This document shows, in pieces, positions 1,233-27,121 of a DNA stretch of 64,000 nt. The notes below the pieces were generated by a model, which was given only the letters and a program-made list of their open reading frames with translations, searched no databases and was not told where the DNA came from. A program made the position numbers and the translations under genes. The DNA lies in NCBI GenBank assembly GCA_965198065.1, contig CBDAON010000004.1:1760001-1824000 (forward strand), given 5' to 3'. Within the stretch, counting starts at the first letter, position 1, and each line of letters begins with the position of its first letter. This stretch comes from Longimicrobiales bacterium. Lineage in GTDB: Bacteria > Gemmatimonadota > Gemmatimonadetes > Longimicrobiales > Gaopeijiaceae.

Positions 1233-1855
1233 GGTGATTATAGGGAATACTTGATTTCCGCACAAGATCATGTTAACTTTCAGGTACGATAAGATTAGCA
1301 CTGACAGGAGGTTACATGACTCGCCAGGCACCCGGAAAAAGCTATCGGAAGGGGATCAGCCTGATGGAGCTGGCCGATATGTTTCCGACCGAGGAAGCGG
1401 CGGTGAAGTGGTTCGAGGCGTGGCACTGGCCGGATGGCGAGATCGCTTGCATGAGGTGCGGGAGCCTGAACGCCTACCGTGTGAAAAGCGGTCGTCCGCT
1501 GCCGTATCGGTGCCGGGACTGCAAGCGGTACTTCTCGCTGAAGACGAACACGGCGATGGAGGCCAGCAACCTTCCGCTTCGGAAGTGGGCCTACGCGATC
1601 TACCTGGAGATCACGAGCCTGAAGGGTGTGTCGAGCGTGAAGTTGCACCGCGACCTGAAAATCGCGCAGTCGTCCGCGTGGTTCATGAAGCACCGAATCC
1701 GCGAGGGGCTAGCGGCGGAGTGCCGGGAAGTGTTTACCGGGCCGGTCGAAGTTGACGAGACGTACATCGGCGGCAAGGAGAAGAACAAGCATGCCAGCAA
1801 GAAGGCGAACCTCGGGTGCGGCCCGAAGAAACCGGTCAGTGGAATACGCCTGTGA
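1233..1855 (+). mobile_element. IS1595-family element, transposase truncated
   Basis: ORF 1316-1855 has a Zn ribbon (CMRCGS...YRCRDC), an HTH region and VEVDETYIGG. The rest of the DDE domain is missing. Probable left end ggtgattata follows an AT-rich stretch. Confidence 0.85.
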
Positions 1856-1867
1856 ACATGGAAATTC

Positions 1868-3300
1868 GAGTGAGTCCCATCTTTAGTTGAAATTGAAGCG
1901 GCCTCCAACCTCAGGTAACGTGGGTGTGCGACCACACCACGGGATCACAAGAGAGGAAGGAGGCCACCGATGGGAAGGATGCCAAGGCTCGTCGAGCGGG
2001 GCAAGAAGGACCGGCGGCTCGGGGAACCGAGGGAGGTGAGTTGGGAGGAGATCGAGGCGCTGGAGCTGGACCCTCGGGTGGAGCTGATCCGGCAGCTGAT
2101 TCCGCTGGGACTGGCGGAGGTGGGCCGGATGCTCGAGGAGGAAGTGGAGCAACTGGCGGGGCAACGTCACGCCAGGAAGACCGAGGACGATCGACATTGC
2201 CGGCATGGGCATAACCCAGGGTCGGTGCGGTTGGGCGGCCAGCGGCATCCGGTGCGAGTACCGCGGGTGCGAGGCCCGGCCGGAGAGTCGAGGCTGGCGG
2301 CGTATGAGCAGCTGCATGGCTCGCCCGGCGAGATGGACGAGGGGCTGTTTCGGAAGGTGCTGCTCGGGATCTCGTGCCGGGACTACGAGGCAGCGGTCGA
2401 GGCGGTGCCTGGAGCCATCGGGCTGTCGAAGTCGACGGTCTCGCGGGAGTTCAAGAAGGCCACGGCCGCGAAGCTGAAGGAGTTTCAGGAGCGGGACCTC
2501 TCGGGTTACGACGTGGGGTGGCACTCGTCCTGGACGGCAAGAGCTTTGCCGAGGACGAGATGGTCGTCGCGCTCGGGGTGACGACCAAGGGGGACAAGGT
2601 CTTCCTCGGGTTCGTCCAGACCGACACGGAGAACGCCGTGGTGATCCGATCCTTCCTTCGGAGTCTGAAGGACCGAGGTCTCGACCTGTCGGCCGGAGCG
2701 CTCGTGGTGATCGATGGAGCCCGCGGTCTCCGGAGCGGCGTCCTGGCGGTCTTCAAGGGACAGGTGCTCATCCAGCGGTGCCAGTGGCACAAGCGGGAGA
2801 ACGTGATCTCGTATCTGCCGAGAGCGGAGCAGAAGGGCTGGCGCCAGCGTCTGCAGCGCGCCTACCAGCGGCCCACGTACGAAGAGGCCGTCAAGGACCT
2901 CAAGGCCCTGCGCCAGGAGCTCGCGGGGGTGAACCAGTCCGCGGCGGCCAGTCTCGATGAGGGGTTCGAGGAGACCCTCACCCTCCACCGGTTGGGAGTC
3001 TTCCCCCTGGTCGGCCAGTCGCTCAAGACCACCAACGTGCTCGAGTCCGTGAACGCCCTGGCCGAGCAGAGGTGCGGACGCGTGGACCACTGGAAGAACT
3101 CGAGCCAGAAGCACCGATGGCTCGCGACCACGCTCCTGGAGATCTAGTCACGGCTCCGGAGGTTGCTCGGGTACCGACACCTCCCGCTCCTCAGGGCCGC
3201 GATCCAGAAGGACCTCGGGATCACCCTTCCCGAGAGCCGTTCACATGCTGTCGCCTGAGACGGAGGCCGCTCCAGTTTCAACTAACTTTGGGATTGACTC
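1868..3300 (+). mobile_element. IS256-family element, inactive
   Basis: Terminal IRs: left gagtgagtcccatctttagttgaaattgaagcggcctcc; reverse complement of the right end gagtcaatcccaaagttagttgaaactggagcggcctcc. Transposase motifs LVLDG, VIDGARGL, QRCQWHK, TTNVLES. Frameshift near 2515 and in-frame TAG at 3145. Confidence 0.9.
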
Positions 3301-16034: not shown

Positions 16035-16089
16035 TGAGCCACGTCCAGGGTTAGGGAGCAACCCTGCGCGGCTCCGATCACCCCTCCGT

Positions 16090-17374
16090 TGATCTACCCC
16101 CCTAAAACGAGACCGAGTCCAGTTTTAGAATCTGGACGGGGTCAAGACACGAAAGGGGAGGGCACAATGGCCGCACCAAAGAGGCTGAGTCCGGCACAGA
16201 TCATCAACCGGCTACGCAAGGCAGAGGTGGCCCTGGCGAACGGCAATACGACCAAAGAGGTGTGGCGAGACCTGGGGGTGAGCGAGCAGACGTACTACCG
16301 ATGGCGGCGGGAGTACGGGGGAATGAAGCTGGGCCAGGCGAAGCGTCTGAAGGAGCTCGAGAAGCAAAACCAACGCCTGAAGCAGGCGGTGGCGGATCTG
16401 ACGGTCGACAACCTGATTTTGAAGGAAGCCTCCGAGGGAAACTACTGAGCCCCGAGTGGCGCAGGCGGTGCGTGGTGCACGTGCGGCAGCGGCTTGGGGT
16501 GAGCGAAAGGAAGGCGTGCCGGGTGTTGGGCCAGGCGCGCTCGACGCAGCGTCGGATCCCGAAGCGGAGGGAGGACGAGGAGGCGCTGAGACAGGACGTG
16601 GTGAAGGTGGCCCGACGGTTTGGACGCTACGGGTACCGGATGGTGACGGGGATGCTGAGGACGGAGGGCTGGGCCGTGAACCACAAGCGGGTGGAGCGGA
16701 TCTGGAGACAGGAGGGGCTCAAGGTGCCAAGTAAGCAGCCGAAACGAGGGAAGGCTGTGGCTGACCGACGGTTCTTGTATCCGACTGCGGCCCCTGTACC
16801 GACACCATGTATGGGCGTATGACTTCGTGGCGGACCGGACGCATGATGGACGGCCGCTCAAGATGCTGACGGTGCTGGATGAGTACAGCCGGGAGTGCCT
16901 GGCGATCGTGGTGACTCGCAGGCTTCAGGCGGACGATGTTCTGCAGACGCTGAGCGAGCTGTTTGCCGAGCACGGTCCACCGGCGAATCTTCGCTCCGAC
17001 AACGGTCCGGAGTTCACGGCCCGAGTGGTTCGGCAGTGGCTCGGTGAGCTAGGCGTGAAGACGCTGTTCATCGAGCCGGGCAGCCCGTGGGAGAACGGCT
17101 ACAATGAGAGCTTTAACGGCACGCTCCGAAACGAGCTGCTGAAGCGCGAAATCTTCTGTTCGCTGGAGGAGGCGAAGGTGCTGATCGAGCAGTGGCGGCG
17201 CGAATACAACACGCATCGACCGCACAGCTCTCTGGGTTATCGACCCCCGGCCCCCGAAGCGATCCGGCCAGACCCAAAGCTGCTCAACCTACCTCTGCTT
17301 CTTGGACCACCCCCCAGCCAAAAGGAGGTGCTTGGACTAACACTCTAGGTGGTACCGCTTTTGGGGGCAGGTCA
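16090..17374 (+). mobile_element. IS3-family element (IS407-like) with an extra frameshift in orfB
   Basis: TG...CA ends with IRs tgatctaccccc / tgacctgccccc. orfA is 16167-16448 with a GGGAAAC slippery site. orfB has WAYDF, SDNGPEF, SPWENGYNESFN and RPHSSLGY. Confidence 0.92.
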
Positions 17375-18571: not shown

Positions 18572-19780
18572 ATGCAGGCGATGTTGACGTGGCTCGACCT
18601 GACGGCGAGCGACCGGGACAAGATGCGGCGCGTGCTGGATCTGTTCAAGGAGCAGGGCACGCTCGACGAGATGGGGATCGGGAGCCTGCGGGACGTGCTG
18701 TCGGACGCGCTGTTTCCCGGCACGTCGTCTATCCAGACCCGACTGCGGTACGTGCTGTTCATCCCGTGGATCTATCGGCGGTTGGAAGATCGAAAGGTCC
18801 GGGCCGCCGAGGTGGAGCGAGCCGCTCGGAAGGCCGAGGTTGATCTCATCGGCCCGCTCGAACGGAACTCGGACAACGCGGGGATCATCGGCCAGAGGGC
18901 TCGGGGCTCGCTCGTACGGTTGCCGAGTTCCGTCTATTGGAGCGCGCTCACGCGGTGGGGCATATTTCAGCCCCAGCAGAGCCTGGGTTGGTACCACTCA
19001 CGCTTCGATGCGCTCGTGGATGGACGCGGCGTTGTCGGGCGAGCGGACGATCCGGGCGTGATCTGGAGCCAGCAGGCGCATTGGCATCCGCGGCTGCCCG
19101 AGCCGCCAGCGGGGTTCCCCTGGGAAGCGTCATTCGCGTTGACCCATGACGAGGCCGACTTCTTGCGCGGCCGCATGGAGGAACGGTGCGCGGGCACCCT
19201 GCTGGCATGGCTGGTGCGGAACGGATCGGATTCGCCGGCGGAGAACGTCTGGGAGGATCCCGATGCGCTGCGCGCCCCGGAGAGGATTCGAGACATCTTG
19301 GAACTGGCGCGGCGGTTCTCGCTCCACGTCGAGGGCATGCCGCTGCTCTACAACCTGCTTGTGGCGGAACGCCGGCGTGACGTCCTTGACTCAGACGAGG
19401 ACAAATCGATCGACGAATTCCGGGCAGGCCTCGCCGAGTGGGCAGCCGGGGAGGCCGACGAGGACCGCCCGTTCGAGCCTGATGCGCTTTGGCAACTGGT
19501 CGTCCAGCGTGGTGGACGCCTCCCGTATCCGCAACGCGTCTTCATCGAAAGCTGGTCGCGACGGATCGCCGAACTGGGTCCCGACAGGGTCGCCGATGAC
19601 AATCGGTTGCGGACGTTGGTCACCGAACGCGAGCTCTGCCTCAAGGGCGCACGGGCACGGCTGGCGAACCGGAACCGCCTGATGGACTGGATGCCAGGGG
19701 TCGGTGTCGGGCGGATGGACTTCCGCTGGTTTCGGGTCCGGCAGTTCATGATCGACCTGCACCGGGGGGTTGCCGCCTGA
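18572..19780 (+). CDS. DUF6361-family protein (Azaca-like component)
   Basis: LTWLD, GTLDEMGIGSLRD, LFPGTSSIQTRLRYVLFIPW and PSSVYW. Confidence 0.8.
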   Translation: MQAMLTWLDLTASDRDKMRRVLDLFKEQGTLDEMGIGSLRDVLSDALFPGTSSIQTRLRYVLFIPWIYRRLEDRKVRAAEVERAARKAEVDLIGPLERNSDNAGIIGQRARGSLVRLPSSVYWSALTRWGIFQPQQSLGWYHSRFDALVDGRGVVGRADDPGVIWSQQAHWHPRLPEPPAGFPWEASFALTHDEADFLRGRMEERCAGTLLAWLVRNGSDSPAENVWEDPDALRAPERIRDILELARRFSLHVEGMPLLYNLLVAERRRDVLDSDEDKSIDEFRAGLAEWAAGEADEDRPFEPDALWQLVVQRGGRLPYPQRVFIESWSRRIAELGPDRVADDNRLRTLVTERELCLKGARARLANRNRLMDWMPGVGVGRMDFRWFRVRQFMIDLHRGVAA

Positions 19781-21618
19781 TGCTCCCGCCGGACTCGCGC
19801 ACCACCGCTTTCGAGCTGATCCGCCCGCCGAGCGGATACCGCCTCGACTTCGCCGTGCTGACCACCTACACGCTCGATCTGGAAGCGCTGCTCGTGCTGC
19901 CCTTGTCGGTGCTCGTACACTCCGACAGAGGCTTGGAGGAGCTGCTGGCAGATCCGCTTCGGCTGCATCAGGCGATCCGGGACGCCGGCGATCGCGTGCA
20001 TGCCTTCGTCGACGAAAAGGGCATCGCGATTCCGCGTGGCGCGCGCTCGCTGTACTCGATGCTCGAGTCGAGCGTGCATCCCGTGCGCGCACCGAACCGC
20101 GGCGCCTTCCATCCCAAGGTGTGGGTGGCCCGGTTCATGGCGGTGGACGAAACGGCGGAGGACCTGCTGCGGGTGGCGGTCCTGTCGCGGAACCTGACCT
20201 TCGACCGTTCCTGGGACATCGCACTGGCGAGCGAGGCCCTGCTTCGGAGCAGGCGGCGCGTGGCCGCGAGCCGGCCGCTGCATGACTTCCTCGTGGCGCT
20301 GCCGCAACTGGCCACCAATCGCATCCCAGAGGGCATCGTGGAGCGTGTCGAGGAGCTCGCCGATCAGGTCACGCGAACCGCGTTTCCGGCCCCCGACGGC
20401 TTCGATTCGCCGATCGAGTTCCATGCGCTCGGATTGACACGCGGGCGTCGAACCTGGAGCCCGCCGTCGAGTGGCTATCGCACGCTCGCCGTAGCCCCGT
20501 TCGCCAACCAGACGGGGCTCGACGCGGTCAGCCGGCTGGGCGGAAACGACCGGATACTGGTGAGCCGGCAGGAGGAGCTCGACAAGCTGTCCAAAGACGT
20601 GCTCGCCGAATGGAACGAGGTATTCGTCCTGTCGGATACCGCCCAGGGCGAAGCCGAGGATGGTCCGGCCGAGACGGACGAGGACGATTCCGGGACGGGT
20701 GCAGACGCTCGCCCGTCGGGGCTGCACGCCAAGATGATCGCCGTGGAGCACGGTTGGGACGTGACGTGGTCTGTCGGCTCCGCGAACCTGACCTCGGCGG
20801 CGTTCGCCGGCAGCAACGTAGAGATGATGGCGTCCGTCACAGGCAAGAAGGGGCGCAAGGACGGCGCCAGCGGTTACGGCATAGATCGCTTCCTCGACGG
20901 CGGATTCCAGAAGCTGTGCGTGCCGTATCAGAGGGTCGAACCGGAGACGGTGGATCCGCGCGTGACCGACGCACGGGCGCGCCTCGAGGCGGCGCGCGAC
21001 GCCCTCGTGGACGCCGCTCTGCGAGTGACTTGCGTTTCCGAGAGTGATCTCTGGACGTTGACGATCGACAGCGTCGCTCTGCCCGCCGACGATGTCGAGG
21101 TTGCAGCCTGGCCCGTCTCGGTTCCGGAAGACCAGGCCTGCCGGCTGCCGGAACCGTTGCGCTGGAGGCTGCCGGTCGCGCGCCTGACCGCGTTCGTCGC
21201 CTTCAGGATGAGTGTCCCGGTACGGGGTGTGGACGACATCCGCATGACCCTGCGGCTTCCTGCCGAGGGAATGCCGGAGGACCGGATACATCAGTTACTC
21301 AGAACCTTGCTGGACAGCCCCGAGAAGTTCCTGCGGTTCCTGAGGGCGTTGCTGGGCGGGCTCGACGCCGTGCTCGGCTGGGCAAAGGATGTCGGAGAAG
21401 GGAACGGCAAGGGCGACTGGGGAGTCGGCGGCGGCGGCGAGACCCTGCTCGACGACCTTGTCCGCACCGCGTCCAGAGAACCGGAGCGCCTCGAGCCCGT
21501 CCGCCGCCTGATCGACGACCTGCGGAAGACGGATGAAGGGCGGCGTATCGTGCCGGACGAGCTGTTCGCTATCTGGATGGCTGTCGACGAGGCGCTCGCA
21601 CCGGAGCCACGTTCATAA
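19780..21618 (+). CDS. Phospholipase-D-family (PLD nuclease-like) protein
   Basis: TTYTLDL, FHPKVW...SRNLT and LHAK...GSANLT. TGATG overlap with the upstream gene. Confidence 0.85.
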   Translation: MLPPDSRTTAFELIRPPSGYRLDFAVLTTYTLDLEALLVLPLSVLVHSDRGLEELLADPLRLHQAIRDAGDRVHAFVDEKGIAIPRGARSLYSMLESSVHPVRAPNRGAFHPKVWVARFMAVDETAEDLLRVAVLSRNLTFDRSWDIALASEALLRSRRRVAASRPLHDFLVALPQLATNRIPEGIVERVEELADQVTRTAFPAPDGFDSPIEFHALGLTRGRRTWSPPSSGYRTLAVAPFANQTGLDAVSRLGGNDRILVSRQEELDKLSKDVLAEWNEVFVLSDTAQGEAEDGPAETDEDDSGTGADARPSGLHAKMIAVEHGWDVTWSVGSANLTSAAFAGSNVEMMASVTGKKGRKDGASGYGIDRFLDGGFQKLCVPYQRVEPETVDPRVTDARARLEAARDALVDAALRVTCVSESDLWTLTIDSVALPADDVEVAAWPVSVPEDQACRLPEPLRWRLPVARLTAFVAFRMSVPVRGVDDIRMTLRLPAEGMPEDRIHQLLRTLLDSPEKFLRFLRALLGGLDAVLGWAKDVGEGNGKGDWGVGGGGETLLDDLVRTASREPERLEPVRRLIDDLRKTDEGRRIVPDELFAIWMAVDEALAPEPRS

Positions 21619-23510
21619 AGCGACCATCCGTCGACGCGAGCCTCAAGCCTCTCAAGTCCTTTCAGCGCCGCACGGTGGAGCACGCCTTCCACCGTCTGTT
21701 CACAGCGGAGGACAGCACAGGGCGCTTTCTGGTGGCCGACGAGGTGGGCCTCGGCAAGACGCTGGTCGCCCGGGGCATCATCGCCCGCGCCATCGATCAC
21801 CTCTGGAACGACGTCGAACGGATCGACATCGTCTACATCTGCAGCAACGGCAGCATCGCGCGCGCCAATCTCCCCAAGCTGCAGGTGGACGGGGCAGAGC
21901 AACGGTCGTTCGCGTTGGCGACCCGGCTCACGATGCTGGCCACGGAGCTGGCGCATCGCGAAGGCGAATCCGGGCTCGCCGGCAGCAAGCTGAACTTCGT
22001 CAGCTTCACGCCGGGCACATCGTTCAAGATGGGGCACTCGGCCGGCCAGGGCCGGGAGCGGGAGGTGCTGTTTCAACTGCTCGACCCGTTGGTGGGTCCG
22101 CGTACAGCGCTCATGAATCTCCTGCAGGGATGGATCACCAAGAAGGAGAAATGGCGACGGCGGCTGGAGAACAATCCCCGGCCTATCGACGACACGATAC
22201 GGCAGAGCTTCGAGGCGGCGTTCCATGAGTGCCCGGACCTGCAGGGCAGGCTGCGCGAGATCCTCGACACGTGGTTCCGTCGCTACCGGTCGTGGCCAGC
22301 CGAAGCCCGGCAGCAGCGCGACCAGGTCATCTCCGAGTTGCGCCGCGTGCTGGCCGGCGCGTGCGTCAAGGCGCTCGAGCCCGATCTGGTCATCCTAGAC
22401 GAGTTCCAGCGCTTCAAGAAGCTGCTCGACACGCGCGAAACGGAACGAGATCCCGCGGCGGATCTGGCGCAGGAGCTGTTCCAGGCCGAGGCCCATGACG
22501 GCAAACGCGTACGCACGCTCCTGCTTTCCGCAACACCGTACAAGCTCTACACCGCGGACGCAGAGATCGAGCATGAGGAGCACTACAAGGATTTCCTAGG
22601 CACCACGCGGTTCCTGCTCGGCGACGATGAGGCCCGCGTCGAAGCCGTGAAGTACCAGCTCTCGCGTTTCGGGTCGGCACTGAGGCGCGTGGCCGCCGGA
22701 GACCCGGCGCAGGTGGAACGCGTAGAGCTGGCGAAGCGCGCGGTCGAAGGCTCCCTTCGGGACGTGATGGCGCGCACCGAGCGTGTTGCGGCCAGTGACG
22801 ATCGGGACGCGATGGTGACCGAGGACCGGCGCACAACGACCGTCACCTCCAGCGATGTGCGCCAGTACCTGGCCGCCGATGCGCTGTTCCGCGCGGTCGA
22901 TGGACACGATCCGATGCCGTTCTGGAAGTCGGCCCCGTACCTCGCGCACTTCATGCACGGCTACAAGTTCAACAAGCTCGTCGACGAGGCGATGAGCACG
23001 CCGGACAGAATGGTCGACGCGCTCCAGCGACATGACTCGGCGTTTCTGAAAGCGGCGACGCTGCGGTCGTGGGGAAGCATCGACCCCGGACACGCGAAGC
23101 TGAGGGAACTGGTGAGGGAGCTGATCGGCGAGGGGCTGTGGCGCCTGCTGTGGATGCCGCCCACGTTGCCGTACTGGCCGCTGGAAGGACCGTTCGAGGG
23201 CAAGGAACAAGCGACGAAGCGCCTGTTGTTCTCCGCTTGGAACATGGTGCCGGACGTGGTCAGCGCTGTCCTGAGCTACGAAGCGGAACGGCTGATGACG
23301 GGAGGCCGGCTCAAGTCATACGACAACCCCGACGAGCAGCAGAGGCCACTGCTGAGACTGACACAGTCGACGTCCGGTGTTCTATCCCGGCATCGTCTCC
23401 TCCTGCTGCTCCTGCCCTGCCTGCCGCTGGCGGATCAGATAGTGGCGTTGGTGCGGGCGGGGACGAGTGGACGTTGCGCCTCTTCGGGCCTGTTGGAGCA
23501 GCCACCATGA
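21615..23510 (+). pseudogene. SF2 helicase, C-terminally truncated
   Basis: FLVADEVGLGKT, ILDEFQRFK, LLLSATPY and KRLLFSAW. No helicase-C motifs V/VI before the stop. The expected start reads ATA at 21615. Confidence 0.8.
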
Positions 23511-23826: not shown

Positions 23827-23923
23827 TCATTCACTCATATCTGACGGCACCGTGATCAGCCATGATCGATAGCTCATTCACTCGTATCTGACGGCACCGT
23901 GATCAGCCATGATCGATAGCTCA
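23827..23923. repeat. 47-bp tandem duplication with one mismatch
   Basis: tcattcactc(a/g)tatctgacggcaccgtgatcagccatgatcgatagc x2, covering the next start codon. Confidence 0.92.
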
Positions 23924-24697
23924 ATCCTTCAGCGGGGCGTCGTCTTCGCCTGCCTGTTCGGACCGCCCCGTACACTCAGTCGCCAAGACGGGATGGAGGT
24001 TCACTCGCGGATCTGCGAGCGACTCGGGGTCGACGACGTCTCTTTCCGTTATTCAACAACGGGAGACGAGAATTCCCGCGGATTCTCGATCGCAATGGGA
24101 CGAGCGCAGGGGCGCGGTGGGCTCACGGTGACGATCGACAACAAGAGCATCAACGATCCCGTCCGGCTTCACGTAAGCTATACATGGCCTCCTTCCCGAG
24201 AGCATGTGTACGAGGATATCGATCTCGCCTCGGAAGCAACTTTTGATGCGATCGGTTCCGGGATGAACCGCGTGCTCGTCGAGGCTCGAATTCGTGCGCA
24301 GGTCGAAGCGCGTGGCGGATCTGCAGCAGACTACCTTGCCCGGAACGTGCTGAACCTCACTGACAGGGATTTCGAGGTCCTGCAAGCTCAGCCAAACTAC
24401 TTCGCCATCAAGTATGAAATCCCGGCGGAACATCCAAGCCCAGATAACCCTCTATCGAACCCCAAGAGGGACATGTCGATTGAGGCTCTTCGTGAGGATC
24501 CGAGAGTGCTCTATCTTGAACTCATGTCTCAATGGCCCCAGCTAGCGCCCTCGGGAACGCGTGGCGGGGCGATCGAGATCGACGTGAGCAAGCTCAGACC
24601 ACTCGGTGATGAGCCTCCAAGCGCCTATATCAAGGAGGCTATGGGGTACCTAACGAAGGTGGCCATACCGTTATTCAGCCGATCACAGCCCACCTAG
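23909..24697 (+). CDS. Hypothetical 262-aa protein, loosely TIGR04255-like
   Basis: Long intact ORF with lower GC3 than the core genes and an alpha/beta pattern. First gene of a tight three-gene unit. Confidence 0.65.
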   Translation: MIDSSILQRGVVFACLFGPPRTLSRQDGMEVHSRICERLGVDDVSFRYSTTGDENSRGFSIAMGRAQGRGGLTVTIDNKSINDPVRLHVSYTWPPSREHVYEDIDLASEATFDAIGSGMNRVLVEARIRAQVEARGGSAADYLARNVLNLTDRDFEVLQAQPNYFAIKYEIPAEHPSPDNPLSNPKRDMSIEALREDPRVLYLELMSQWPQLAPSGTRGGAIEIDVSKLRPLGDEPPSAYIKEAMGYLTKVAIPLFSRSQPT

Positions 24698-24724
24698 CGG
24701 CTCCCGGGAAGCAAAGGAGCGACC

Positions 24725-24949
24725 GTGACGACGACTACTACGACAGCCTACACTCTTAGTTCTCAGGTATATGGATCGGTGCCGGGGGAGTTGGACAACA
24801 GTGCGAATAATCCTGTTCCAGTGTGGGAGCCCGGCCTATTCACGCGGCCGAATGTCTCGCCCGCTGGGCAGGAGATTCCCGACGACGAGGCCTGGGCTGA
24901 TCTGGCCGCCGCTGCTAGAGCCCAGTGGGCGGAAGAGAATCCCTACTAG
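24725..24949 (+). CDS. Small acidic putative antitoxin
   Basis: AAAGGAG RBS, Thr-rich N-terminus, acidic C-terminal helix ending WAEENPY, 12 bp upstream of the toxin. Confidence 0.65.
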   Translation: MTTTTTTAYTLSSQVYGSVPGELDNSANNPVPVWEPGLFTRPNVSPAGQEIPDDEAWADLAAAARAQWAEENPY

Positions 24950-24961
24950 GGAGGACTCTGG

Positions 24962-25318
24962 TTGGTTGATCTCTTTCCAGGCGAAATCTACGAGGCCTTT
25001 GACCGAGTGGGGCGCCTTCGACCATTCGTGGTGATGTCTCGCCCCGAACTCAACAAGGGCGACTACTTCCTTGCCGCACCATTCACCACTGCGCGTTTGG
25101 AAGAGCGCCAGCATGTCAGGAGCTGTGTGTTCTTCTCACGTGGCTCCTTCGGTCTTGCCAAATCATGCGTCGCCCAGGCAGACGCGCTCACCGTTCTCCG
25201 CAAGACGGACCTTGTTGAACCTCCAACGCCGCTCGGCAAGTTGGACGCCGGAAAATGGAGGCAGCTTGTGCGTGCAATGGGGTTCGTGGTCCAAGCTGAG
25301 TGCCATCCCGCAGCCTGA
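24962..25318 (+). CDS. PemK/MazF-family endoribonuclease toxin
   Basis: PGEIY...RPFVVMS...APFTT...GLAKSCVAQAD...LGKL. GGAGG RBS with a TTG start. Confidence 0.85.
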   Translation: MVDLFPGEIYEAFDRVGRLRPFVVMSRPELNKGDYFLAAPFTTARLEERQHVRSCVFFSRGSFGLAKSCVAQADALTVLRKTDLVEPPTPLGKLDAGKWRQLVRAMGFVVQAECHPAA

Positions 25319-26598
25319 CTTCGGCGGCACCCAGAAGATGTTCTTGGTCACAGTCGCCGTCCCTGCGGGCGCGAAGGCAAAGATCATTGCTTCTACTGCC
25401 ACGATCAGACGCGGTGCACGAGCTCTGTGCCCGGGAAGTCAAGATATTCCCCACCGTCCGGCTTACGGGCTGGTGATTCCTTCTTCGTTCGCGAAGTTAA
25501 GATAGACGATCAGACGACTCAAAAATTCCCCACTCTCTAGTGCCCGGTGACCAGATCGGAGTGAGGATCTCCAGCACGTCGGCGCTCGTCACATCGGAGA
25601 GCCTTGAGGATAGCAAGGCGGCGACGGACGTGGAGGTGACAGGCTAGATCGTTACGTGATGTCAAGATTCCCACACCGCGACTTCCCCGTGGTGCGCCCC
25701 CGGCCGTGACGATTTAAGCGGACGCGACCTCCTGAGGGACTGGTAGGGAGACGCTCTGATGTGGACACGCCGCATTAACAAGGCGGTGCTGGGCCCGTCA
25801 GGACGCGGCTCGCTAACCATATGATGGAACGGATGTTGGGGAGAAGAGCCCCGGGTCTGCGAGATCGTGGCGAGTGTTGCGCCAGGTGTTCTAAAACGAA
25901 CACGGTTAGCGAACCAGCGCCACACATCGTGCTGTTCGCATCGCTCAACGGACGGAAATAGTCTGGCAAAGCTGCGTCAGGTAGCGCTACCGACACCGAG
26001 ATTATTGTTGACCGTGCCTTACTCGTTCCGAATGGAGTAGATGATGCCCCGAAGATCATCAGCACCACGGCCTCCCCGCCCTCCCAAGCCGCCAGACCGC
26101 CCTCAGAATCCTCAAACGCCGCGCCTCCCCGGTACGAACGAGTGGGTACGGGCACATTGGCGATGGGACTATACGTACCTCCGGTGGGAGTGGGTCCGAG
26201 GCCATTGGCGTAAGTGACCACAGAGCATCGGTCCATGCAACGGGACCTCTCTCATGCTCTGAGCTGTCGTGACCCGTGACAATTGCTCATTCACCTTCGT
26301 ACGTCTGGATACGGGACGAGATATCAGCGCCGATGATGCTGACCATGCAGCTCTGGCTGAGCAGCCTGGAGCATTACGTCTTCGCTCCCATCGGGAAGAT
26401 GTCGATTTCGGAGGTGACGAGCGCCCGGAGTTGCTATCGCTGTTGTTGACCTAGAGCCGCACTGCGACAACTGTCAGACAGTTGCCCGGATGCGTCCGGT
26501 TGCCGCCCCCGGGGGGATGCTATGTCCACACGAGAACGCAAGACTGGGCCTGGAACATCAGCGTCCGTTGGCAACCAGCTGCAAGAAGGTGACCACTA

Positions 26599-26961: not shown

Positions 26962-27121
26962 TCCCCATAAGTTACTACGAGTCATATAGTTACGACGACG
27001 CAGGACCATCGTATATAGCCGATGATCCGTCCGGCCTCGGGCCCTCTATCATTCGGCGCGTCCGGATATTGTCCGAGTTCTCCGTCCTGACGGCCCTACG
27101 GGCCCCCTGCGCGCGACGTTC

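Follow-up and report, generated by a model that had tools for sequence, protein, structure and literature searches.

A conserved three-gene unit with a predicted MazF-family toxin, a Trp-tailed putative antitoxin and a candidate antitoxin chaperone in a Longimicrobiales bacterium

What does a third gene do in front of a predicted MazF-family toxin and its putative antitoxin? We addressed this question for a locus in a Longimicrobiales bacterium, lying within the 64,000-nt stretch of DNA that was analyzed as a whole (hereafter, the window).

The locus and its setting

The three ORFs of the trio lie co-oriented on the + strand with intergenic gaps of 27 and 12 bp. Gene 1 (23909..24697, +) encodes a 262-aa protein with a pI of 5.4, gene 2 (24725..24949, +; GTG start) a likely antitoxin of 74 aa, and gene 3 (24962..25318, +; TTG start) a 118-aa protein of the PemK/MazF family, a predicted endoribonuclease. 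Shine-Dalgarno-like sequences precede gene 2 (AAGGAG, 24714..24719, +, 5 nt ahead of the start) and gene 3 (GGAGG, 24950..24954, +, 7 nt ahead of the start), and none was evident before gene 1 on inspection of the sequence. Most of the trio is covered by contigs from three of four public runs (X1, X4, and X12, from three studies), the best-matching of which may be the source sample of this genome, and no indels within the three ORFs occur among the contig matches listed. These observations agree with the preliminary description, which had reported intact, tightly spaced, co-oriented ORFs with ribosome-binding sites on genes 2 and 3. Two short contigs of an RNA run (X18) fall on genes 1 and 2; they make up a small share and were not counted as expression. 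No sigma-70 promoter was matched at the trio, terminator-like sites were at chance level, and no tRNA was found in the window. A 47-bp tandem duplication (23827..23920, +) spans the start of gene 1. Since it is present as a single copy in another strain (X12 contig), it was rejected as a functional element, and it is strain-variable and probably incidental.

The adjacent genes are decayed, as had been noted at the outset. Upstream lies an Azaca system (window positions 18572-23510, +) in which zacA and zacB were matched over their full length and zacC appears truncated, because its match is confined to profile positions 22-585 of 1019. Downstream (about 25540-25650, -) is a stop-riddled, decayed fragment of a many-copy gene, which gave no profile match and which we take to be an integrase. 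The GC content of the trio (0.58-0.60) is lower than that of zacABC (0.66-0.67) and of the genome (0.67), as is its GC3 (0.64-0.65 vs. 0.82-0.84 for zacABC), and from these values the trio probably arrived separately. We rejected the idea that the trio belongs to the Azaca system on the basis of this difference and of the lack of any Zac match in 136 neighbors scanned. The position behind Azaca had originally been taken to fit a defense hotspot. The trio does follow Azaca here, but the GC content differs, Azaca-like genes were not seen in the 15 trio loci, and a credible PADLOC neighbor was present at five of these 15 loci (two being the same organism) vs. two of eight loci with gene 1 alone, a comparison that uses heuristic gene calls and no background set. 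Close variants of the Azaca region are abundant in the public runs examined. Window GC is about 0.63 and rises to about 0.70 past position 27000, a step suggestive of an island on the left side of the window; ORFs that look by eye like IS transposases, some in pieces, occur at 1295-3147 and 16089-17348. Gene 1 is single-copy in its own genome, and a PemK-like match of an unrelated clade is found elsewhere (G000 C4:470794-471051).

The toxin, the antitoxin and its tail

Gene 3 scored 21.4 bits against PF02452, just below the Pfam cut-off of 23.1, and the family was matched by 21/21 gene-3 homologs (best E, 1.5e-11). A profile built from the gene-3 family matched Mycobacterium tuberculosis MazF9 at E 1.7e-7, and other MazF structures as well. 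These matches uphold the PemK/MazF identity given to gene 3 in the preliminary description, and by sequence it is a MazF-family toxin and predicted endoribonuclease. R20 is kept in 18/21 homologs (His in 3) and T42 in 21/21; presumably these two residues correspond to the catalytic Arg and Thr of MazF.

Gene 2 consists of a polar N-terminal tail (approximately residues 1-52), which its composition suggests is probably disordered, followed by a C-terminal segment of the form W57...W68-x-x-E-N-P-Y. In an alignment of 27 homologs, the conserved features are W34, which is invariant (27/27), one Thr, and the C-terminal W...W-x-x-E-N-P-F/Y, the rest being polar and variable. The preliminary description had noted a low-complexity N-terminus and an acidic helix ending in WAEENPY in this peptide, and its homologs do have a conserved tail motif. 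The codon of W34, part of a W-x-P motif, lies at 24824..24826 (+), and we propose this motif as the site that gene 1 would recognize. No meaningful family match to gene 2 was obtained in Pfam, NCBIfam, or PADLOC, and PDB sequence searches with genes 1 and 2 returned only globin noise. The earlier remark that gene 2 shows no AbrB or RHH DNA-binding pattern also stands, with no Pfam match to such a domain in 27/27 homologs and none in the PDB. The trio is similar to type II mazEF/pemIK systems in its toxin, which is of the PemK fold and has a conserved Arg and a conserved Thr, in the short acidic antitoxin-like ORF that precedes it, and in having M. tuberculosis MazF9 as the closest solved toxin. 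It differs in that the antitoxin has neither AbrB nor RHH and in the conserved third gene upstream, whereas the canonical operon has two genes.

What the tail may be for is suggested by the nearest toxins outside trios (L065 and L066), which fall within the gene-3 clade (support 96) and belong to two-gene toxin-antitoxin (TA) systems. Their antitoxins have a C-terminal segment like that of gene 2 but an ordinary-looking N-terminal domain and no upstream Trp; in trios, the polar tail with its invariant Trp stands where two-gene antitoxins have their usual folded N-terminal domain. Because these antitoxins share the segment and differ N-terminally, we infer that neutralization of the toxin falls to the C-terminal segment of gene 2 and that the tail is there for a different partner; and because the two-gene systems keep the helix without the Trp tail, the tail appears to go with gene 1. 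Across trios more generally, a Trp lies ahead of the toxin-facing part in 33/33 antitoxins, and W-x(1-3)-P occurs in 22/33, spanning all four antitoxin types, vs. 0/24 two-gene antitoxins; p-values for the motif are overstated, since it was defined post hoc and the rows of the window's class (class A) are related by kinship. Some N-terminal Trp is present in 11/24 of the two-gene controls. Three of 27 control ORFs were left out, namely L071, which represents another three-gene arrangement and has the motif, and two off-frame alternatives, one of them with the motif; for one control locus (L079) no ORF was obtained.

Gene 1, its relatives and their neighbors

Gene 1 has 48 close homologs and 129 cluster representatives, and it gave no Pfam match at E<=1 and no NCBIfam or PADLOC match. 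Its structural model is confident (pLDDT 92) and consists of two alpha/beta halves that make one long sheet, which we read as a predicted duplicated TBP-like alpha/beta fold. The best structure matches were to AdoMetDC (Z 9.5, rmsd 3.6, 116 residues aligned, N-terminal half), TBP (Z 8.1, rmsd 4.7, 167 aligned, whole chain), and McsB/arginine kinase (Z 6.7-6.8, rmsd about 5, 180 aligned), with START-like folds also among them; the C-terminal half alone reaches Z 5.7. Foldseek matches in PDB and BFVD had TM<0.5. On this predicted model, such matches fix the architecture of gene 1 and not its function. The preliminary description had called the protein not SecB-like, and no SecB match came to light, either by sequence (PF02556, for gene 1, 35 distant homologs, or a further set of gene-1 relatives) or among the best 50 VIA structure matches, which extend down to Z 6.0 for the full-length model and to Z 3.7 for the C-terminal half. 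Conserved residues include arginines R9, R25, R86, R127, and R129 and the strand residues E125, E192, and E204, and the protein is net acidic in 74/78 homologs.

The same description had called gene 1 loosely TIGR04255-like, and this held as a remote profile similarity and failed as membership. A distant relative of gene 1 leads to an Atlas cluster named TIGR04255. By hhalign, the close gene-1 family matched the distant set at 99.5%, and the distant set matched 26 true TIGR04255 proteins at a probability of 74% (E 2.7e-5, score 40.6), over the N-terminal half and in register; as controls, 15 column shuffles scored no higher than 16.9, and the reversed profile scored 14.5. A broad gene-1 alignment matched TIGR04255 at E 1.1e-3, and the close family alone gave no profile match. 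The TIGR04255.1 model (30-bit cut-off) did not match gene 1 in its own genome and missed all 113 homolog sequences scanned (46+35+32, with some overlap). Since the similarity is between profiles, runs via the distant set, and comes with no match to the family model, gene 1 is, as judged from these comparisons, a remote relative of TIGR04255 and not a member. The two are alike in length, in their N-terminal halves, and in heading a tight operon with a Trp-bearing second protein. Indeed, a coupled downstream ORF follows true TIGR04255 genes in 26/26 loci and has a Trp within its first 60 residues in 24/26, although several of these loci are related to one another and long ORFs are frequent at such a GC content. 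They differ in that inspection by eye of the loci listed showed no PemK-like gene in third position behind TIGR04255 genes.

Turning to conservation, 41 gene-1 loci were collected, of which five end too soon, leaving 36 that could be assessed (five pairs being near-duplicates). A small ORF (67-95 aa) and a PemK gene follow gene 1 in 28 of the 36, one toxin being frameshifted, and gene 1 stands alone in eight. The sources of these loci include Gemmatimonadota, Planctomycetota, Ca. Eisenbacteria, and one bin assigned to Gammaproteobacteria. Gaps range from -4 to +21 in the 27 class-A loci that were aligned, near-copies included, the exception being the gap of 27 in the window. Among 401 genomes of its own phylum, gene 1 was matched in 14 and the toxin (E<=1e-10) in seven, and all seven toxin matches have genes 1 and 2 upstream (four represent one genus). 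Among 401 genomes of Planctomycetota (the phylum of genome G407), the toxin was matched in 30; 30 of its 34 places were examined and comprised two trios, one cut by a contig end, and 27 without gene 1. The tail-type TA pair was never seen without gene 1 (0/9 toxin-first matches) and gene 1 was seen without the pair in 8/36, an asymmetry that is not significant (Fisher p 0.18). The proposal that homologs keep the three-gene order was supported, and the three ORFs are a real, intact, conserved three-gene unit.

A broader profile detected gene-1 relatives at 96 places in 95 of 401 Planctomycetota genomes; 95 of these places were examined (L107, at a contig end, was left out), and five of them have <600 nt downstream. 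A PemK gene lies within 700 bp at seven places: two are of the window's class, four (L098, L099, L103, and L108) have another MazF clade and another antitoxin C-terminus, and L100, whose toxin frame is in pieces, is of a third type. At L166, the gene-1 relative is followed by an ORF that we take to be HicB-like, from its position before the HicA match and a motif, and by a weak match to HicA (E 0.001) with an interrupted frame; the HicB-like protein had no PDB sequence match. Two of these loci are set among phage genes, the L099 trio (876-2199, -) between the small and large terminase genes and the L166 trio (785-2149, +) upstream of a prohead protease gene. The trio is a real and recurrent tripartite TA architecture.

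In 87 of the 95 places neither PemK nor HicA was seen (a subset was scanned, so that other toxin families may have escaped notice), and the gene sits mostly among housekeeping genes. In a gene-1 tree built by a quick method from 78 rows, with the truncated L166 row uncounted, support is 100 for a clade of the window's class and ten solo genes, 98 for a clade of the second class, and 99 for the placement of L100 with solo genes. The TA and solo states require seven changes on this tree, which is compatible with repeated recruitment and loss and leaves their direction unfixed. Solo gene 1 is under purifying selection (dN/dS 0.15-0.23, six pairs), and trio gene 1 gave values of 0.08-0.17 (seven pairs, some near saturation). 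The window's MazF type was absent from 10/10 solo genomes searched. That solo copies are kept under selection without this MazF, and that 87/95 places showed neither PemK nor HicA, argues that gene 1 has a toxin-independent role. About a quarter of the Planctomycetota genomes sampled have a stand-alone relative, nearly always a single one, and its immediate upstream neighbor is often a Helicase_C_3-domain gene, gltX, or cysS (L109, L114, L116, L119, L121, and L123 by Pfam; also L117, L130, and L135); the family is unannotated and possibly has a housekeeping role. In six Longimicrobiales loci (L001, L002, L003, L005, L007, and L008) an intact gene 1 without antitoxin or toxin is nested among trio-bearing relatives; such solo genes lie near trmD-rimM-ffh-like genes or an ABC transporter, as labeled by eye.

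A candidate role for gene 1 and its alternatives

To our knowledge, toxin-antitoxin-chaperone (TAC) systems are the one class whose chaperone has the double task of stabilizing an antitoxin and sensing phage, and in the systems described so far this chaperone is SecB-like. The trio has several features in common with TAC systems such as HigBAC, CmdTAC, and MqsRAC, including three genes, a polar, probably disordered antitoxin extension whose conserved aromatics lie toward the third gene, interchangeable toxins that target translation, and a third gene with stand-alone relatives, as is also the case for SecB. The tails of known TAC systems are disordered sequences with aromatic residues (Mets et al., 10.1101/2024.02.24.581848). 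Unlike TAC systems, the trio has the order third gene-antitoxin-toxin; its tail is N-terminal, in contrast to the C-terminal disordered ChAD; its third protein is about 260 aa in length with a duplicated TBP-like predicted fold and no SecB profile or structure match found; and its toxin is MazF (once HicA). As far as sequence goes, the trio therefore resembles TAC and falls outside it on both the SecB sequence and the C-terminal ChAD.

Our preferred reading, which we put at about an even chance, is that the trio is a mirror-image TAC system whose chaperone or sensor is a protein other than SecB. Under such a mechanism, gene 1 would be made first and would bind the antitoxin tail at its Trp motif while the antitoxin is being synthesized, thereby stabilizing the antitoxin and keeping it available, while the C-terminal helix of gene 2 would block the MazF RNase. 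If gene 1 were then diverted or titrated away, perhaps by a phage protein, the RNase would be freed. Neutralization by the helix, tail binding by gene 1, and addiction are what we infer from the comparisons above, and phage sensing by gene 1 is speculative. A chaperone or sensor of the antitoxin tail is the candidate role for gene 1, a shared fold in itself showing no function. In favor of the chaperone reading, the gene-1 family is repeatedly paired with different toxins (a second MazF clade, a third, and HicA/HicB-like genes) with Trp tails throughout; synteny, the tail motif, and the lack of tail-type TAs without gene 1 point the same way, as do the trios among phage genes, the acidic character of gene 1, and the Trp-bearing ORFs coupled to TIGR04255. 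Against it stand the non-significant asymmetry, the post hoc motif, the Trp in almost half of the control antitoxins, the retention of gene 1 without a MazF of the window's type, the modest defense context, and the lack of any match to gene-1 relatives in viral contigs, plasmids, and phage records. A simple picture is also countered by the two-gene TAs without gene 1 that share the gene-3 toxin clade and the antitoxin helix. An anti-phage role of the trio has, in our view, about even odds.

The motif and the synteny fit equally well if gene 1 binds the tail but activates the system, as a protease adaptor or trap that would remove the antitoxin under stress or infection, and a few stand-alone relatives do follow a clpP-like gene (L160 by Pfam; L183 with a similar C-terminus). 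We consider this unlikely, since no harm would be expected from losing an activator, yet none of the nine tail-type TAs lacked gene 1 (the difference not being significant), and most stand-alone relatives have other neighbors. Tripartite TAs of the omega-epsilon-zeta type have a separate regulator gene, and by analogy gene 1 could be a nucleic-acid-binding regulator replacing the DNA-binding domain that is missing from the antitoxin. The whole-chain match to TBP, the five conserved arginines, and the absence of a recognized DNA-binding domain from gene 2 would suit such a regulator, but its net acidic charge and the conserved strand glutamates would not, the Trp tail is left unexplained, and one TIGR04255-coupled protein combines a tail with weak repressor-HTH similarity (E about 0.12); a regulator is therefore improbable in our judgment. 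Equally doubtful is an enzyme that would chemically modify the toxin or antitoxin, and so neutralize or mark it, in the manner of type VII systems: the predicted sheet carries invariant charged residues (R9, E125, R127, E192, and E204) and matches arginine kinase and McsB topologically, but Z-scores of this size are usual for common arrangements, distant relatives vary at E125 and R127, and there was no enzyme-family match. Finally, an ordinary two-gene mazEF-type TA traveling with a functionally unrelated gene would account for gene 1 being usually toxin-free and conserved alone and for the two-gene TAs in the toxin clade, and it is just as improbable given the tight coupling, the repeated pairing with four antitoxin types, all Trp-tailed, and tail-type antitoxins that were seen only behind gene 1.

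Returning to the chaperone or sensor reading, a mirror-image TAC built on another fold would mean that the chaperone-addiction logic had evolved convergently, and it would supply a modular N-terminal tag plus sensor. It would also give a first testable function to TIGR04255-like proteins and to a gene present in about a quarter of the sampled Planctomycetota genomes, and with a module of 1.4 kb and a single residue, W34, the model is directly testable. It is possible, although we hold this only tentatively and think it rather less likely than not to be correct, that the gene-1/TIGR04255 superfamily constitutes a second class of antitoxin chaperones and phage sensors that is independent of SecB, having been recruited time and again from a protein that stood alone, recognizing an N-terminal Trp degron on unrelated antitoxins, and arming MazF, HicA, and other toxins. 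If true, a widespread orphan family would gain a function and the known chaperone-addiction logic would be doubled.

As anticipated in the preliminary description, the trio matched no named system. PADLOC 2.0 (2023 library, older than newer systems) gave no match at E<=1 for genes 1-3, and no description of the trio was found in the literature, including the accessible parts of PMC13069673, PMC10440598, and the DefensePredictor preprint, in a search that mostly stopped short of subscription papers and bioRxiv supplements. In their accessible parts, PMC10865869 has no mention of SecB or a chaperone and PMC13586616 no term match on the trio. TIGR04255 appeared in no main text of the literature searched; in the DefensePredictor supplements, as far as accessible, TIGR04255 proteins are listed as putative novel defense genes and DS-42 as an MBL hydrolase with two hypothetical proteins (PMC13092281).

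Two further arrangements were observed. In the taxonomic class to which this bacterium belongs, TIGR04255 genes head coupled operons (L193-L222), and the second protein encoded there begins with a polar stretch that bears a Trp. Several of the third genes in these operons are presumably ADP-ribosyltransferase-like, a label given by eye from a motif and backed by no match, and the third-gene protein of L210 had no PDB sequence match. At L071 (969-1842, +), a different three-gene set is made up of a 103-aa protein, which we take to resemble DUF3467, a 72-aa ORF, and a divergent PemK.
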